From a virus (Duplodnaviria > Caudoviricetes): DNA of 64,000 bases. The stretch spans positions 1-64,000 of IMG/VR virus record IMGVR_UViG_3300043642_000037; one strand, 5' to 3'. A program made the translations under genes and the position numbers. Below the pieces are notes generated by a model. The model was not told where the DNA came from. It saw nothing but the letters and a program-made list of their open reading frames with translations, and ran no database searches. Shown piece by piece: positions 2,856 through 27,599 of this stretch (position 1 is its first letter; each line of letters begins with the position of its first letter).

Positions 2856-3188
2856 TCAGGCCGGTTCCCAGGTAGCCCCGGGCACCTTGTCGAAGCACTG
2901 CGCGTAGCACTTGCCGTCGCTCGGCGCGGTCCCGACGCCCGCTGTGATCGCGGCCGCGCGCTGGCCGGCGTCGAGGGCGACGTACGTGACGTTCGAGCCG
3001 TCCGCCGGCGTGCGAACGTTCGCGGCGGGGCACGCGACCGTGGCGATGTTGTCGTTCAGGAAGGCCTCGAGGTCCGCCTGGTCGACGTTGCTCACCAGGT
3101 GGCACCAGTTGTCGTTGTTGGGGTTGATTCCCGGGGGATGGAAGTCCCCCATGGTGTGGTGGACGATGGGGCCGATGTATCGGGTCAT
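2856..3188 (-). CDS. DUF4031-like protein
   Basis: WCHLVS...DLEAF...YVAL...RAAAITAG pattern. Confidence 0.55.
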   Translation of the reverse strand: MTRYIGPIVHHTMGDFHPPGINPNNDNWCHLVSNVDQADLEAFLNDNIATVACPAANVRTPADGSNVTYVALDAGQRAAAITAGVGTAPSDGKCYAQCFDKVPGATWEPA

Positions 3189-3404
3189 GGACCCGGTTCG
3201 TACCACGCGAGGTTTACGAGGTAAACACGGAGCGCGAGGCGTCGACGCGCTAGAAGACCTTCACCGTGCGGCCGGCCATGACCCACAAGGTCACCAGGAT
3301 GCCGCACCACATGAGCGCGCGGCCGACCTCCGCGACCTTGGTGTTCGACGCGAGCGCGTGGATGAGCACGCCCACGACCGCGACGAGCAGGGGAACGATG
3401 GCGA

Positions 3405-6600: not shown

Positions 6601-6779
6601 GCGGTCTCGCGCAGTCATTCTTTCGCAAGGCGGGCGTCGTTCACGTCGGTCGCGTGGTCGGCAACTGCGTTCGGCTCCTCTGCGATCCGTTTTCTCCGTC
6701 GCTGAGGTCCTCCGTTCTCTACACGGAAGATCCAGTCGACTGCATGAACTGTCTGGTGAAGGAAGCAAGGAGACTATGA
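6597..6779 (+). CDS. VDCMTC-family protein
   Basis: GVVH...LLCD...PVDCMNCLV; GTGA overlap. Confidence 0.75.
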   Translation: MSGLAQSFFRKAGVVHVGRVVGNCVRLLCDPFSPSLRSSVLYTEDPVDCMNCLVKEARRL

Positions 6780-9473: not shown

Positions 9474-9709
9474 AACCGATCGCGATCTTGTTATTCGTAT
9501 CCGCGTGCATCGACGCGCGTTCCAGCGCTGTGCGTTCCAGCGCCGTTGATCTGTGCGGCGATCCGCCTGTGATCCGTGGGACAGCGGTCTTTGCGACCAC
9601 TGTACAGGACCAGAACTATTTCTGCTTCCTGGATGACGGTCAGTTGCAGCTCGAGGCGGACATCAGCCTGACTCGTCAGTGGGTGCAGTGTGTTATCGAA
9701 GCCCGTTGA
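9470..9709 (+). CDS. Small lipoprotein
   Basis: MKPIAILLFVSAC lipobox-like; GTGA coupling. Confidence 0.55.
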   Translation: MKPIAILLFVSACIDARSSAVRSSAVDLCGDPPVIRGTAVFATTVQDQNYFCFLDDGQLQLEADISLTRQWVQCVIEAR

Positions 9710-10001
9710 CGCCGGGCTCGAGGCCTTCGTCGAGAAGGTGCTGCCGACGGCCAGGCCTCGGTGTGTTGTGAGGCCTCGGTTCGTTCACAATAACGTCGTC
9801 CACCTCGGGCACCGCGTGGACACCGAGGACGGGTCTCGGGTCTACTTCCTGTGCGAGAATAAGATGCTTCTCGGCGCGTTGTTCGGCGGGCCTGGACACG
9901 ACAAGCTGCCGATGTACGAGCCGGGCGTTGAGGCGTTCCACGTCTTCGACGACGCGGATTGCATGACGTGCATTGTGGTCGAGGGGCGGCGTCGTGGCTG
10001 A
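9690..10001 (+). CDS. VDCMTC-family protein (start uncertain)
   Basis: NVVH...FLCE...DADCMTCIV. Confidence 0.7.
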   Translation: MLSKPVDAGLEAFVEKVLPTARPRCVVRPRFVHNNVVHLGHRVDTEDGSRVYFLCENKMLLGALFGGPGHDKLPMYEPGVEAFHVFDDADCMTCIVVEGRRRG

Positions 10002-10205
10002 GCGCGTCCTCTACGAGGGTATGGTCCACTTGGCCGAGCGCGTGATGATAGGCATTGACTGGAAGCAGGCTCCTCGACGCGGGAGCCGTTCGTCAGGTTT
10101 CTCTGCACCGAGCTGCTTCACCCTGTGAAGTCGGCCGAGTTCGCTCGCGCCGACGTCAACTGCATGTCGTGCCTGGTGACCCGGGCGCGAAAGGAGACAG
10201 GATGA
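9994..10205 (+). pseudogene. Frameshifted VDCMTC-family gene
   Basis: MAERVLYEGMVH... in one frame, FLCTELL...DVNCMSCLV...* in another. Confidence 0.6.
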
Positions 10206-10465
10206 ACGAGGACAAGCAAGGCGTGTGGAAGGTGACGCACGTGAAGGACGACGTCGAGACGGTCCTGCTGGTCACCGCGATCGGCGAGCGCGACGCTCGG
10301 CGGCAGGCAATGGAGCACATGTATCCCCCTGACAACGGCAACAACTGGACGGTCATGTACTGGATGAAGATACGCAGCTGTTCGATCAGCTCCATACCTT
10401 TCCGTCCTGACACGCCGTACCGGCTGTACGCGCTCAACCGTCGCACGGGCGAGATGACGCCCTGA
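10202..10465 (+). CDS. Hypothetical protein
   Basis: AGGAG RBS; ATGA overlap; MNEDKQGVWKV... Confidence 0.6.
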   Translation: MNEDKQGVWKVTHVKDDVETVLLVTAIGERDARRQAMEHMYPPDNGNNWTVMYWMKIRSCSISSIPFRPDTPYRLYALNRRTGEMTP

Positions 10466-10479
10466 AAGGTCGATGACCA

Positions 10480-10770
10480 ATGTTCGCATTCGGTGACAAG
10501 GAGTGGCCCGGCATCGCCAAGCTCAACGAGGAATCTGGCGAGCTGGTGCAGGTGATCGGCAAGCTCATGATGACGCACGGCAAGGCCGAGTACTGGAACG
10601 GCGTCGACCTCCGGGTCAACCTCGTCCAGGAGATGGCCGACGCCGCCGCGGCGATCGACTTCGTGATGGAGCACGCGCTGACCGAGGTCGAGCGTCACAC
10701 GCTGATCGCCCGGCTCAAGGAGAAGTTCGCGCTGTACGAGACGTGGCACGCGGAGCAGGCTGCGCCGTGA
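10480..10770 (+). CDS. MazG-like nucleotide pyrophosphohydrolase
   Basis: KLNEESGEL...K...QEMAD all-alpha NTP-PPase motif. Confidence 0.75.
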   Translation: MFAFGDKEWPGIAKLNEESGELVQVIGKLMMTHGKAEYWNGVDLRVNLVQEMADAAAAIDFVMEHALTEVERHTLIARLKEKFALYETWHAEQAAP

Positions 10771-10795
10771 CGTGCCTTGTTCGCTTGGTGCCGCA

Positions 10796-11161
10796 ATGAG
10801 GAATAAGCGCAAGCGGGCGAACGCGGTGATCGTCGACGGCATCGTTCACGCGATCGGCAAGCTCGAGCCCGAGCAGCGGTTCGTCGCCGCGATAGACGAG
10901 CCCGCAGCCAGGCTCTGGATGGGCGCGCTTGGGGAATACCCGCTGCGTCGAAGTACGCGTGCTCAGCGCAAGGCGGACAAGGCCCGCGCGATTCGCGAGC
11001 GGCTCGAGCCGCGGGTGAGCCTGCTGTGCGACGCGCAGCCCCGCATGATCCTGGCGTGGCCTGGTCAGACGCCGTTCCGTCTGCCGCCGTGGCGTCGCGT
11101 GCCCCGCACGCACGCGTTGGTTAACTGCATGGCGTGCCTGGTCGCAGGGAGCCGAGCGTGA
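10796..11161 (+). CDS. VDCMTC-family protein
   Basis: DGIVH...LLCD...LVNCMACLV. Confidence 0.75.
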   Translation: MRNKRKRANAVIVDGIVHAIGKLEPEQRFVAAIDEPAARLWMGALGEYPLRRSTRAQRKADKARAIRERLEPRVSLLCDAQPRMILAWPGQTPFRLPPWRRVPRTHALVNCMACLVAGSRA

Positions 11162-11556
11162 GGAAGTCGATGCTCCACGGCAACCGAGCGTGGCGGCCGA
11201 TCCGCGCCGTCGCGGGCATCGTGCACCACGCGACTCCGCTGACCAAAAAAGAGGCGGAGTACCTGTTTCGCCTGGCCGACACTGTCCGCGCGGTCGTCGA
11301 GTGCGGAGAGTGCGGTGCCAAGGTCGGCGCGGAGTGCGTGCGCAAGAAGGACAAGCAGCCGATGGCGAATCACAGCTACCGGGTTCGCCAGGCTCGCCTG
11401 CTGTTCGAGCAGCGCGTCCTGCCCAAGCTCGATCGTCTGCACCAGACGCTGTGCACCGCGGGGTCGGGACCCGGTCACGTGGTTTTCAACCAGGCGGACG
11501 ACCCGGACGTCGATTGCATGTCGTGCCTGGTCGTCATAGCCAAGCAGCAAGGGTGA
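11158..11556 (+). CDS. VDCMTC-family protein with a nested CxxC..C..H zinc finger
   Basis: GIVH...[CGECGAKVGAEC...NH..R]...TLC...DVDCMSCLV. Confidence 0.75.
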   Translation: MRKSMLHGNRAWRPIRAVAGIVHHATPLTKKEAEYLFRLADTVRAVVECGECGAKVGAECVRKKDKQPMANHSYRVRQARLLFEQRVLPKLDRLHQTLCTAGSGPGHVVFNQADDPDVDCMSCLVVIAKQQG

Positions 11557-12521
11557 CAATATGAAACTCATGGTCGCGATTCTCGTTGTGCTTTCTGCCT
11601 GCAAGGCCCGCGTGGTGCAATGGGACGGCATTCCTGCCGACATCGTCAACGTCGAGACCGTCTGCCCGGCGAAGCCGTGATGCAAGGCCTCGATCGAACG
11701 CTGGTCACCGAGGGCTATCCGACCGAGCCCGGCCTGCACCTGCTGTGGTCGGATCACAACGGGTGGCCGGTCATCGCCATCGTGCGCGTGCAGGTTGGCG
11801 ACAATCGCGCGGTCACGTGGTGGCAGGGCGTCGGCGGCACGGACCGCTGGCAGGGGCTTCCGAAGATGTTCCGCTTCGCCTACGACAAGTACCTCGGCGG
11901 CTCGCGCTGCTCGCCCGCGGCATTCGCTCACTACGAGGCCTTGTGGGCTCGAACGTCCGACGAGGTCAAGGCGATGCTTGCCAAGGCGCGCTTGTGAGCG
12001 CGCCTTTCCTCGGTCACGACGATCCCCTGCCCGGCGCCATGAGCGAGCTGGTGTCGGCGCAGTCGTCGCTCAACATGCACGCCGACCCGATTCCGGGCGC
12101 GACCGGCTACGTTAGCGAGACCGACGCCAACGTCAAGCACGCGATGGAGCACATCCACGCCGCGTTCGAGCTGCTGGACAGGGCGTGGAAGGCCCGCGAG
12201 GCCGATCGCACGAAGTTCCATCGCGCGCAGCAGAAGCTGTCCGAGCGCTCGCCGAACGCGGGCTGCGCCGAGTACGCCGGCGCCGCCGCCGCGCTGCTCG
12301 CGCTTGATCGCCGGGGACTCTCGGAGTCCGACGAGGCCGAGGCGCTGCGGGACTCGATGGACGCGCGGTGGTACGGGATGTCGGGCGCTGACCAGGCGCA
12401 CGCGCGGGCGCTGGTCGCCCTCCTGGCCGAGCAGTTCGAGAGCGCCGGGCACGATCCCGGGGACGAAGCTCGCTAGACTCGTGGTTCACGAGATAAACTT
12501 CTCAGGAAAGGTCGGTGACGC

Positions 12522-12962
12522 ATGAGCTACGTCAGGAGCGCGTTTTTCGTCGTGCTGGGCCTCGTCACGGGGGCCGTGGTTGAGTTGTCGATCGTGCGCG
12601 CGGTTCGCGACGAGAAGGCCGGGCCGCCGACGCTGTCCGTCCATCACGAGCGTACGTCGACCGTCCGCTCGCGGTGCGACGAGTGTCCTCAGCCGGGCGA
12701 CGTGATCAAGGCCAGCGTTCGCGGGCCCTCGAGCATGGTGCGCGGCGTCTCCGTGTATCGCGAGGAGGGGTTCGTCAGGAGCTGCTTCGGCTGCGACGAC
12801 CTTTCGATGACCGCTGACCTGCTGGGTCGCTACCTGGTGGTCGGGTTCCAGATGAGCCGCGCGGCCTCGTGCGTGCTGCCCTGCGGGAGCTACGACGGCG
12901 ATGTCGTGGCGCTTCAGCGATGCGGCGCGGTCTTGGTCACGTCGGAAGTCATCATTCGATGA
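12522..12962 (+). CDS. Membrane-anchored Cys-rich protein
   Basis: N-terminal hydrophobic helix and several Cys; palindrome upstream at 12484. Confidence 0.55.
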   Translation: MSYVRSAFFVVLGLVTGAVVELSIVRAVRDEKAGPPTLSVHHERTSTVRSRCDECPQPGDVIKASVRGPSSMVRGVSVYREEGFVRSCFGCDDLSMTADLLGRYLVVGFQMSRAASCVLPCGSYDGDVVALQRCGAVLVTSEVIIR

Positions 12963-13842
12963 GCGAGTGCCAGGGCTTTCGCTGCGACCGCTGCGGCGTC
13001 CGAACGCTGGCTTCGGAGGACGGCTCCAACACCCCGGACGGCTGGAGCGTGATCAAGGTCATGCGAAAGAGTCCGTTCCACGCCGCGCTAAAAGACCTCT
13101 GTCCGGAGTGCACCGAGCTGGTGTTCTCCGCGCTTTACGTAAGGACTGTCCCATGAACAACAAGGCTCCGACGACCACTCAGATTGGCATGCCAGCCGTG
13201 TCGCGCTCGCCCGCGCGGATCGCGGCGGACCCGGTCCGTCTTCTTCGCTTCGCCCGCAAGGCCGCCATCGTGTTCGCCGAGAGCGGTGCGCCCAACACCG
13301 CCGCGGTGTGCGAGGCCTACGTCCATGCGATGGCGGAGAACCACCACCTTCGCCGGCAGCTCGCCTCGGTCCAGGCATGGAGCGAGGAACCGACACGGCG
13401 GGTCAACTCCGAGGACCATAACCCGTTGTCCATTCCCGAAAAGGGCTCCGCCAACAACGTGAACCCAGAGCGGGAGGAGGCGGTTCTCGCCTTTGGCGAA
13501 GGACCGTCGCAGCCGTGACCGGAGATGCGCCCAGCGGTACGTTCGAGGAGGCGGTCAGGCACCGCGCGAGCGGTGTCGGGCTCGTTCCGATCGGCCTGAT
13601 CAAGCGGCTGACGCCGGCCGAGTGGGGTCAGATACGAGTGCTGACCCAGGGCGGGGCTCGGCGCCTCGTGGCCATCTACGACGCGGCCCCGCCGATCGCG
13701 TCGCGAACCAAGACGCCGACGATGGACTCGTCGGCGATCGATCGGCTGCTGAAGGAGGTCGAGCATGGGCATTGAGCACCAGGAGGCCGAGCGGCTGGCC
13801 GCGCGGCTCGAGGCGACGGCTGAACGAAAAGGAAACCAGAGC

Positions 13843-15921
13843 ATGACCAACGAGTTCCCGCCCTTCGCGAAGACCGTGGCCGCGTCCTTTCAGGCCGTCA
13901 CCAAGGCTCCGCAGGCCTACGTCACGGGCGTCGACGGCGACGCGCTGTACCAGCGCTACCTGGCCGCGTTTCCCGAGGGCGCCAACCCCATCTTCAACAA
14001 GCAGACCGAGCACGAGTGCTCGTGTTGTCGGCACTTCATTCGGCGCGTGGGCAACGTCGTCTCCGTCGACGACAGGGGCGTCATTCACACCATCTGGGAC
14101 GAAGCCGCTGGGCGGGCGCCGTACCCGTACGATCGCGTGGCATCCGCGCTGCGCGACGCCGTGCTCAGCGCGGACATCTCCGACCTCTACCGGGTCGGTC
14201 CGAAGGAGAACAGCTTCGGCGCGGCCACCACGAGATCGCTCGATGCCGGCGGCAAGGTGCTGACCTGGAACCACCTCTACACGGACGTGATTTCCAAGGT
14301 GCTGCAGGCCGCGTCGCCCGACCAGGTCCGCGGCGACTACCGCACGACGGTGCAGGTGTTCACGCGCGGCCTCGTCGAGCTGGCGCCCGCGGCGCTGGAC
14401 ACGGTGCTGTCGCTCATCGAGGCCAACAACCTGTACCGCGGCGCCGAGCACAAGGCCGCGGTCGTGGAGTTCCAGAGGGCGCAGCGGGCGTACCTGACCA
14501 AGGACCCGCGCGAGCAGTCCATCTTCGCGTGGACCCACGCCACCGGCCCCGCGTCCCGCTTCCGCAACACGGTCATCGGCACCCTCGTGCAGGACCTCAG
14601 TGAGGGTGTGGACGTCGAGCGCGCGGTCGCCTCGTTCGAGGCGAAGGTCGCGCCGAGCAACTACAAGCGGACCTCGGCGGTCATCACGCCGGCCATGGTC
14701 AAGAACGCGATGAGGACCATCGAGGAACTGGGGCTCGAGTCCGCGCTGGAGCGACGCTTCGCGACCATCGCCGACATCTCGGTCAACGACGTGAAGTGGG
14801 TCGACGGCAACGTCAAGCCAGCCATGAAGGGTGGGCTCGGCGATGTCCTGATGAAGGCCGCGGTCACGGCGAACCCCCAGAGCACGAAGAAGGACGAGGA
14901 GCGCGCCGAGGACGTCGGGCTCGAGGCCTTCGTCGAGAAGGTGCTGCCGACGGCCACGGGCATGGAGGTCCTGTTCAAGGGCGGGCACCTCGGCAACCTG
15001 ATGTCACTGACGGCGCCTGTACACCCGGAGCCCAAGCAACTGTTCCGCTGGGACAACGACTTCGCGTGGAGCTACGGCGGCAACGTCACCGACTCGATCG
15101 CTGAGCGGGTGAAGAAGGCCGGCGGCAAGGTCGAGGGCGCTACGTTGAGGGTTTCCCTCTCCTGGTTCAACTTCGACGACCTCGACCTGCACGTTCACGA
15201 GCCGCCGGGTCGAGGCATCGCGGGCGTTCGAGATCACATCTACTTCGGTAACAAGCGCGGCGCCAGCGGTGGCGTCCTCGACGTCGACATGAACGCGGGT
15301 GGTGGCCGCACGCGCGAGGCCGTCGAGAACGTCGTTTGGATGGACAAGATGCCGAGCGGCCCCTACAAGGTCGTCGTCAACAACTACTGCCTTCGCGAGA
15401 CGAGCAACTCCGGCTTCGTCGTCGAGGTCGAGTGCGCGGGCAAGCTCTCGCACTTCTCCTTCAACAAGACCGTTCGCAACCAGCAGAATGTCGAGGTCGT
15501 GACGCTGCACATGAAGGAGGGTGTCATCGAGCGCGTCGAGATCGGCGACGCCGCGATCACGGCCTCGAACATCGCCGTGACGAAGTGGGGCCTCACGACC
15601 GAGCAGTACGTCAAGGTCGACGCTGTCACGCTGAGCCCCAACTACTGGGGCGACAACGCCGTGGGCAACAAGCACACGTTCTTCGTCCTGAGCGGGTGCA
15701 GGAACGACGAGCCCACCCGCGGCATCTACAACGAGTTCCTGCACTCGCGCCTCGAGCCGCATCGCAAGGTGTTCGAGGTGATCGGGGACAAGACCAAGTG
15801 CCAGCCCACGCACGGGCAGCTGTCGGGCCTGGGCTTCTCGTCGACGAAGCGTACGAGCTTCGTCGTCCGGGTCCAGCAGGGCAGGACGCAGCGGCTGTTC
15901 AACGTCCACGTCGGGGCTTAG
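13843..15921 (+). CDS. Large conserved phage protein with a YfaP/DUF2135-like domain
   Basis: HECSCCRHFIR; SLSWFNFDDLDLH...LDVDMNAG...AVENVVW; RBS AAAGGA before ATG 13843. Confidence 0.75.
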   Translation: MTNEFPPFAKTVAASFQAVTKAPQAYVTGVDGDALYQRYLAAFPEGANPIFNKQTEHECSCCRHFIRRVGNVVSVDDRGVIHTIWDEAAGRAPYPYDRVASALRDAVLSADISDLYRVGPKENSFGAATTRSLDAGGKVLTWNHLYTDVISKVLQAASPDQVRGDYRTTVQVFTRGLVELAPAALDTVLSLIEANNLYRGAEHKAAVVEFQRAQRAYLTKDPREQSIFAWTHATGPASRFRNTVIGTLVQDLSEGVDVERAVASFEAKVAPSNYKRTSAVITPAMVKNAMRTIEELGLESALERRFATIADISVNDVKWVDGNVKPAMKGGLGDVLMKAAVTANPQSTKKDEERAEDVGLEAFVEKVLPTATGMEVLFKGGHLGNLMSLTAPVHPEPKQLFRWDNDFAWSYGGNVTDSIAERVKKAGGKVEGATLRVSLSWFNFDDLDLHVHEPPGRGIAGVRDHIYFGNKRGASGGVLDVDMNAGGGRTREAVENVVWMDKMPSGPYKVVVNNYCLRETSNSGFVVEVECAGKLSHFSFNKTVRNQQNVEVVTLHMKEGVIERVEIGDAAITASNIAVTKWGLTTEQYVKVDAVTLSPNYWGDNAVGNKHTFFVLSGCRNDEPTRGIYNEFLHSRLEPHRKVFEVIGDKTKCQPTHGQLSGLGFSSTKRTSFVVRVQQGRTQRLFNVHVGA

Positions 15922-26839: not shown

Positions 26840-27103
26840 GTGATGGACGTCGACTGCCTGTGCTGCATCCCCGCCTCCGCGCCCGCGCGCGTTCGCGAGG
26901 ACGGCTCGTGGAGGGACGCCGCCGGCGTGGTTCACGCGGTGAACGCGACGGGGGTCGAGCCCGACATCGACTTCGGTCGCGAGACTGCCTGTGGCTCCGC
27001 TTCGTGGGATCCGGACAGCCCGCGTGACTATCCGGCCTCGACTGACGAGGACGTCGACTGCATGACGTGCATCGTCAGGCTGGCGAGGCCATGCCGAGCG
27101 TAG
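26840..27103 (+). CDS. VDCMTC-family protein with the motif at both ends
   Basis: DVDCLCCIP...GVVH...TACG...DVDCMTCIV; AGGAG RBS. Confidence 0.8.
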   Translation: MMDVDCLCCIPASAPARVREDGSWRDAAGVVHAVNATGVEPDIDFGRETACGSASWDPDSPRDYPASTDEDVDCMTCIVRLARPCRA

Positions 27104-27339: not shown

Positions 27340-27599
27340 ACGCTGACGACGCCTGGGCGCTCGGTCGACTCGTCGAGTTCCCGGAGCTGGAGGAGTGCAC
27401 CTCTGTGCGCGTGACGATCGATGGGATCACGCATCGCGCGCTGAGCGAGGACGCCACCGGATGGCGGACCCTCTGCCGGTCGCACCGCTTGGCTGTCTTC
27501 GGCGGCCGCGCGTACGCCATCATCGGTGTGCCGCTGCACACCTACGACTTCTCTGCAGCCGACGTCGACTGCCTGTGCTGCATCCCCGCAGGGGGATGA
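27336..27599 (+). CDS. VDCMTC-family protein
   Basis: DGITH...TLC...DVDCLCCIP; ATGA overlaps. Confidence 0.8.
   Translation: MNADDAWALGRLVEFPELEECTSVRVTIDGITHRALSEDATGWRTLCRSHRLAVFGGRAYAIIGVPLHTYDFSAADVDCLCCIPAGG

Follow-up and report, generated by a model that had tools for sequence, protein, structure and literature searches.

The stretch of DNA analysed in this study (the window, 64,000 nucleotides) is the first 64 kb of a virus record of 156,126 bp; the G+C content is 66%. The first 28 kb of this 156-kb genome hold all of the 18–19 small plus-strand genes whose products end in a common motif, [VI][DN]-C-M-x-C-[LI]-V, followed by a tail of 2–8 residues, and many genes of this array are joined by stop and start codons overlapping as ATGA or GTGA. 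At the locus described here, the features follow one another on the plus strand. A member of the motif family (9994–10205), which is read in two frames, is followed by a non-family gene of 87 aa (10202–10465), a MazG-like gene of 96 aa (10480–10770), an open reading frame of ten codons (10767–10799), family gene C (10796–11161; 121 aa, ...VNCMACLVAGSRA), which has orthologues in all relatives, and family gene D (11158–11556). The latter combines an N-terminal Phage_zn_bind_8 domain (PF24623, E 4.2e-6, above the gathering score) with the C-terminal motif and was used as synteny anchor.

The MazG-like protein matches PHROG 25433 (E 1.8e-11) and PHROG 4856, nucleoside triphosphate pyrophosphohydrolase (E 2.3e-7). 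PHROG is the sole source of the name, as searches of Pfam and of PDB sequences gave no match; one JGI homologue is named NTP pyrophosphatase, and the acidic stretches NEESGE and QEMAD were recognized by eye only. Public metagenomes contain 52 homologues, most of them exactly 96 aa long; the length of the gene in the window is native and its position is conserved.

In an alignment of 25 family members, a His in the first third of the domain, a Cys and the D-C-M-x-C-(L/I)-V motif are invariant. These mini-proteins have no Pfam family and no PDB sequence match. An AlphaFold model of moderate confidence (pLDDT 72) consists of three strands and a C-terminal helix beginning at the CxxC, and a Foldseek search of this model against the PDB returned no match below E = 1. 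The family may carry a His-Cys3 zinc site. Searching 1.84 billion proteins with the family profile yielded 177 representative clusters with E below 1e-3, mostly of 57–100 aa, with a few called fragments of 33–40 aa. One database protein of 763 aa (P0053) has nine separate stretches that match the profile; it represents either a fused array or several successive genes that the gene caller did not separate. This H-C-CxxC family, with 177 clusters and no known fold or function, is a more interesting object than the locus itself and constitutes a separate finding.

At the DNA level, the pattern TGCATGNNNTGCNTNGT occurs in 14 exact copies on the plus strand, with 0 expected. The overlap ATGA inside the motif, to which the initial annotation had drawn attention, is present in 13 of 18 copies. 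The codon at position x varies between ACT, ACC, ACA and ACG while the residue is constant, so that conservation acts on the protein and not on a DNA site.

The ten-codon frame at 10767–10799 reads GTG ACG TGC CTT GTT CGC TTG GTG CCG CAA TGA, i.e. V/M-T-C-L-V-R-L-V-P-Q-stop. Its GTG (10767–10769) overlaps the TGA of the MazG-like gene (10768–10770) as GTGA, and its own TGA (10797–10799) overlaps the ATG of gene C at 10796 as ATGA. Sequence and overlaps are present as the initial annotation gave them, which had taken the frame for the second half of the family motif plus a short tail, left behind when foreign genes are captured into the array at the motif. The predicted peptide keeps C-L-V and the tail; the family His is missing, as are two of the three Cys (the middle one and the first of CxxC), and it cannot function as a member of the family. 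An in-frame Cys codon upstream (10761–10763) is part of the MazG-like coding sequence, which is read in a different frame, and has the wrong spacing, giving C-A-V-T-C; a full motif with one extra codon was therefore rejected. L027, the closest relative, has GAG where the window has GCG, which makes this Cys codon a by-product of a point change. Also, the predicted RNA fold at the frame is no better than that of shuffled sequences (z = −0.68) and no promoter-like or terminator-like site was found there, by which a regulatory element was rejected.

For scoring half motifs, a 15-nt weight matrix was built from 18 true motif copies. The ten-codon frame scores 14.2 bits, compared with 19.0–24.2 bits for the true copies; three unrelated sites of the genome score at least as high, and genomes simulated with a second-order Markov model contain about 1.15 hits per strand that are as good. 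As a match to half-motif DNA the frame is within chance expectation and not significant, and the idea that half-motif scars exceed chance found no confirmation in these scores. A looser pattern, RTGACNTGCYTNGT, has 8 matches where 0.01 are expected, seven of the eight being complete motifs. The 156-kb genome thus has one half motif, with a score in the chance range. A count over ten sequences of about 290 kb (the window's genome, the 89.6-kb relative G001 and eight loci) gave 107 full motifs and three half-like sites, namely the frame described here, one site far from the array with a 50-residue tail, and a 12-codon frame at the edge of the G001 array. Two array-associated cases beside 107 full motifs do not amount to a recurrence of such scars above chance. 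Since motif statistics cannot decide on the origin of the frame, position and homology with relatives must.

The join was located by a three-way alignment and a listing of gene boundaries. L027 shares 98% MazG-like protein identity with the window, and the flanking DNA is 93% identical in two blocks: window 10249–10771 corresponds to L027 46–568, and window 10768–11572 to L027 1202–2006. Between these blocks L027 holds 637 nt that are absent from the window and contain three reading frames, which we call X, A and B. X (564–797, 77 aa) is a non-family gene without Pfam match whose GTG start overlaps the MazG-like stop; A (794–1036, 80 aa) is a family gene ending in ...VDCMSCLVAQARR; and B (1033–1233, 66 aa) is a family gene ending in ...VDCMACLVRLVPQ, the stop of which overlaps the ATG of the 121-aa gene C. 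All genes of L027 from the MazG-like gene to C are chained by GTGA or ATGA overlaps, and X has a GTGA and an ATGA overlap at its two ends, in L027 and also in contig L035.

The ten-codon frame of the window consists of one piece from each side of these 637 nt. The left piece, GTGAC (10767–10771), represents the first 5 nt of X in L027, and the flank alignment reaches 10771, equivalent to L027 568. The right piece (10772–10799) represents the last 28 nt of the B orthologue, (A/T)-C-L-V-R-L-V-P-Q-stop, and is identical in 27 of 28 nt to L027 1206–1233 at the syntenic position. The fusion is in frame, with the start of X leading directly into the final eight codons of B and its stop. The earlier claim of a scar of a family gene is supported by this match. 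The half-motif origin stands only for G-TGC-CTT-GTT and the tail, which derive from a motif gene, B, and falls for GTGAC, which comes from the gene following the MazG-like gene. Within the scar, as we call the frame from here on, the 'M-T' is composed of GTG and AC from X, with the final G of ACG and everything after it from B, which itself reads M-A at the matching place in L027; judged from this alignment, the 'M-T' of MTCLV is created by the junction and not derived from the motif. Compared with the H...C...DCMxC(L/I)V family, the scar holds C-L-V-R-L-V-P-Q from the member B and is itself a remnant and not a member. It shows what marks a remnant: C-L-V with the tail, the ATGA onto gene C, and homology to gene B of L027.

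At the breakpoint, the comparison between the window and L027 gives TGAC versus TGGC, i.e. 1 nt of strict identity, or 4–5 nt if the ancestral B read ATGACG. The B motif does read ATGACG in L024 and L026, and the boundary between the MazG-like gene and A reads GTGACG in L031/L032, where gene A begins with GTGACG. As L027 differs from the window by 7%, it does not fix the exact breakpoint and the length of the microhomology.

Assembly errors were considered as a source of the junction. A Logan assembly contig of SRR35197335 is 100% identical to window 9724–14161, scar included; this contig may share its sample with the record and serves as a control for the assembler, not for the biology. The scar sequence is no artefact of one assembler. 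The intact arrangement is present in two datasets, L027 being an ENA contig and L035 a JGI contig of 99.9% identity to it.

The gene context of nine relatives, which had been found through homologues of the MazG-like protein, was fetched for comparison. In all nine the MazG-like gene lies at the same place (56–98% protein identity), and the gene next to it downstream is an intact family gene or else X, with family genes behind X. A and B directly follow it in L023, L024, L026 and L031/L032, which share 82–88% MazG-like identity with the window, and a single family gene follows it in L028, L029 and L030 (56–73%). With A and B in these relatives and in L027, intact motif genes do occupy this position, as had been anticipated. 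The B orthologues of L023, L024, L026 and L031 end with CLVRMVPR, CLVRMVPA or CLVLMGSK. The scar is absent from all nine relatives examined. As intervening genes are present in every relative, the state of the window is derived, by loss. The comparison places the deletion after the split of the window's lineage from that of L027.

Further relatives were searched for in several ways. A search anchored on gene D returned only MazG-bearing or truncated contigs, a DNA search of the locus against a deposited phage collection had no match, and scans of IMG/VR with the MazG-like protein, with gene D as single proteins and with a gene D profile found nothing. In the JGI metagenomes the gene D profile found only two contigs, both of known lineages. 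By the motif DNA pattern, one true relative was detected in IMG/VR, G001 (IMGVR_UViG_3300012944_000025; 89.6 kb, more than 25 motif copies). G001 represents 48% of a genome, and neither this locus nor a MazG-like gene is in that part, so that it is unusable as a relative lacking the MazG-like gene.

Taken with the junction, these comparisons indicate that 10767–10799 is very probably a deletion scar of lost phage genes, produced by ordinary gene loss. Breakpoints, identity of the flanks and polarity of the deletion are all shown by the comparison with the relatives. The ancestor would have had the order MazG-like gene, X, A, B, C, D, as L027 still has. A single deletion of 637 nt would have begun after the fifth nucleotide of X, run through the whole of A and ended in B, at the middle codon of the CxxC. 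The start of X, which forms GTGA with the MazG-like stop, would then continue in frame into the remaining eight codons of B, and the retained stop of B would overlap the start of gene C as ATGA. The join was probably illegitimate or microhomology-mediated. The allele may have persisted because ribosomes ending the MazG-like gene would restart at the GTG, read ten codons and stop on the ATG of gene C. If the ancestor was without X, as L023, L024 and L026 are, the deletion would measure about 400 nt, with the junction GTGA joined to CGTGCC. The loss covers two or three small genes, X being included only if the ancestor carried it.

The breakpoints lie at sequences that occur repeatedly in the array, and the deletion could be seen as one case of a recurrent, motif-guided joining, in which the RTGAC of gene boundaries and the ATGAC of motifs provide short homologies for gain and loss of array genes while downstream coupling is kept. 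Of the earlier proposal that the breakpoints are at the motif, the right side holds, as this breakpoint is at the Met codon of the motif, and the left one is not at a motif; both sides of the junction read RTG(A/G)C, and a short-homology join there is possible. A boundary GTGACG as between the MazG-like gene and A of L031/L032 and a B motif ATGACG as in L024 and L026 would offer 5 nt of identity. Paralogous motifs of the family share 24–31 nt at 90–96% identity, and a second array-associated half motif, MTCLVHQNKFTR-stop, without a Cys codon before it, exists in G001, the left side of which is, however, no gene boundary. Just one event has a known state before and after, and RTGAC occurs 75 times on the plus strand of the first 28 kb, so that a breakpoint there is not rare. 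Other truncated members of the family break elsewhere (window 2252 and 2353, and a 50-aa fragment in L026), and this test was chosen after the data were seen. We consider recurrent motif-guided joining unlikely on this balance. If it were true, the motif would shape the plasticity of the genome as well as the function of the protein, and joins would leave short x-C-L-V relay frames which keep downstream genes coupled.

The initial annotation took the MazG-like gene for a foreign one that had come into the array through a crossover at the TGC-ATGA-CG of a family gene, the second half of which was left as the scar. The position of the right breakpoint at the motif Met codon fits this proposal, as do the ATGA within most motif copies and the mosaic nature of the array, which includes several non-family genes. 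The relatives speak against it: the MazG-like gene is in place in all nine, at 56–98% identity and with intact family genes after it, and none of the nine, in a search anchored on MazG, lacks the gene while having an intact motif gene at the site. A crossover inside the motif is contradicted by the junction itself, the left breakpoint of which is the GTGA of a gene boundary, i.e. the start of X or A, and not a first half-motif; nor is a first half-motif found upstream of the MazG-like gene. Gene B, from which the tail was derived, sits 0.4–0.6 kb downstream of the MazG-like gene in the relatives. Capture of a foreign gene at the motif is highly improbable under these circumstances.

Ordinary gene loss also has to be weighed against the reverse polarity, by which the relatives gained X, A and B by insertion into an ancestral ten-codon frame. 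Insertions at the boundary of the MazG-like gene and A do occur, since X, found exactly there in L027 and missing in L023, L024 and L026, was gained. In B, however, the family domain is complete, its invariant His, Cys and CxxC all being present, and the scar corresponds to the last eight codons of B, which cannot plausibly have grown from its own tail. Moreover, A and B are common to lineages far more divergent from the window than L027 is, and the reverse polarity has hardly any probability left. Chance resemblance or an assembly artefact, for which the half-motif score within the chance expectation of the genome could be quoted, is scarcely credible in view of the 27 of 28 nt shared with the 3′ end of B at the syntenic place in a relative with 93% overall identity, of the second, fully identical assembly, and of a junction homology of at most 5 nt, which is too little for a repeat collapse by the assembler.

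Overlapping stop and start codons such as ATGA and GTGA couple translation in phage and bacterial operons. Like the genes of such operons, the scar starts with GTGA (10767–10770) and ends with ATGA (10796–10799), as about ten other boundaries of the array do, and the 20 nt ahead of the gene C start at 10796 contain no AGGAG-like site, unlike those at the starts at 6776 and 10202. Having no clear Shine-Dalgarno sequence, gene C probably relies on coupling through the scar. It would be translated by ribosomes terminating upstream, and the coupling would pass through the ten-codon relic frame. Compared with coupled operons, coupling across a relic frame is in this case a prediction, and the frame had a chance of one in three of being kept anyway; as a single event, the in-frame outcome is therefore no evidence of selection on coupling.

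Mycobacteriophage genomes are mosaics that illegitimate recombination has produced close to gene boundaries; the sites share little if any homology, and the surviving products leave adjacent genes functional (PMC3029335). Mosaic junctions of phages in such places are commonly put down to illegitimate or microhomology-mediated joining (PMC3029335), which the deletion described here fits. The scar resembles these mosaics in that its breakpoints are at or near gene boundaries with little homology (PMC3029335), and a comparable remnant is found in Island3 gp68, the C-terminal 18 residues of which repeat those of the upstream gene (PMC3029335). Unlike the mycobacteriophage mosaics, the scar represents a loss whose state before the event is visible in a 93%-identical relative, and the remnant is a ten-codon frame with overlapping stop and start codons at both ends. 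With integron-like or site-specific cassette capture the array shares small genes on the same strand and a repeat near each gene end; unlike there, the repeat of the array is a protein motif, and presence or absence of genes does not coincide with it. No new recombination system is revealed by the locus. What had been a speculative capture site becomes a documented and recent loss of two or three accessory genes (637 nt) in the fast-evolving early-gene array of an uncultured soil-type phage group, with the alleles before and after the event both in public data. It provides a small and clean example of how a phage array shrinks without breaking its chain of overlapping stop and start codons, and the locus is suited to asking whether coupling via a relic mini-frame matters.

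The surroundings of the scar are also variable. X is an extra gene of L027, and the non-family gene upstream of the MazG-like gene (10202–10465) is found in L026 and L027 (86–87 aa) and absent from L023 and L031. The upstream family gene (9994–10205) is divided into two frames by a 1-nt deletion near 10068, as alignment with L026, L023 and L031 showed, with GCA-GGC in the window versus GCAAGGC or GAATGGC in these relatives. The Logan contig repeats the frameshift sequence, and the gene is either a pseudogene or a sequencing error. Downstream, a small lipoprotein-like gene (MKLM...C..., 11561–11680) encodes 39 aa compared with 82–87 aa in L023, L024 and L027; it has an in-frame internal deletion of 144 nt, with the signal-peptide-like start and the conserved end NIVNVETVCPAKP kept. 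Both the 1-nt and the 144-nt deletion are within 1.7 kb of the scar in the window's lineage. Together, the scar, the neighbouring lesions and the gain and loss of genes look like relaxed selection on an accessory block. On a larger scale, G000 and G001 share 80–95% protein identity in structural and replication genes versus early arrays that align only in patches and at 24–31 nt of motif DNA.

Further rearrangements were observed in the relatives. In L026 (2299–3017), an 86-aa gene (MNEDKQ...) lies between a full family gene and a 5′-truncated copy of the same gene, which encodes 50 aa and overlaps the MazG-like gene by 17 nt. In L023 and L031 this flanking family gene is single and the 86-aa gene is absent. 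The arrangement in L026 has the appearance of a gene gained or lost when family copies recombined. The half motif of G001 is located at about 1365–1403 on the minus strand, as a 12-codon frame, MTCLVHQNKFTR-stop, with a perfect ATG ACC TGC CTG GTG, in front of which GGGGAG stands in place of a Cys codon. This frame is at the array edge and has two neighbours, a GTTTA-N5-TAAAC palindrome and 34 nt left over from a minus-strand gene, the intact form of which is found in the window (2856–3206).

Several repeats were detected elsewhere in the window. A 51-nt stretch coding for GLEAFVEKVLPTA occurs at 9703–9753 and, with 94% identity, at 14906–14956, once inside a 718-aa gene (PHROG 1735) and once just upstream of the family gene ending at 10001, where the copy is a displaced gene fragment. 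The variant motif DVDCLCCIP lies in a perfect direct repeat of 29 nt (26846–26874 and 27561–27589), the two copies of which flank three family genes. From the first base of the record, positions 1–127 are repeated perfectly and in direct orientation at 1468–1594, which duplicates the end of a family gene (...VDCMTCLVKRG...); this 127-nt repeat could be a true duplication or else result from the assembly or from a terminal repeat. Finally, a tandem array with periods of 12 and 18 nt at 1153–1499 codes for a Gly-Asn/Asp-Gly-Tyr repeat, which forms the N-terminal part of the family gene ending at 1604.
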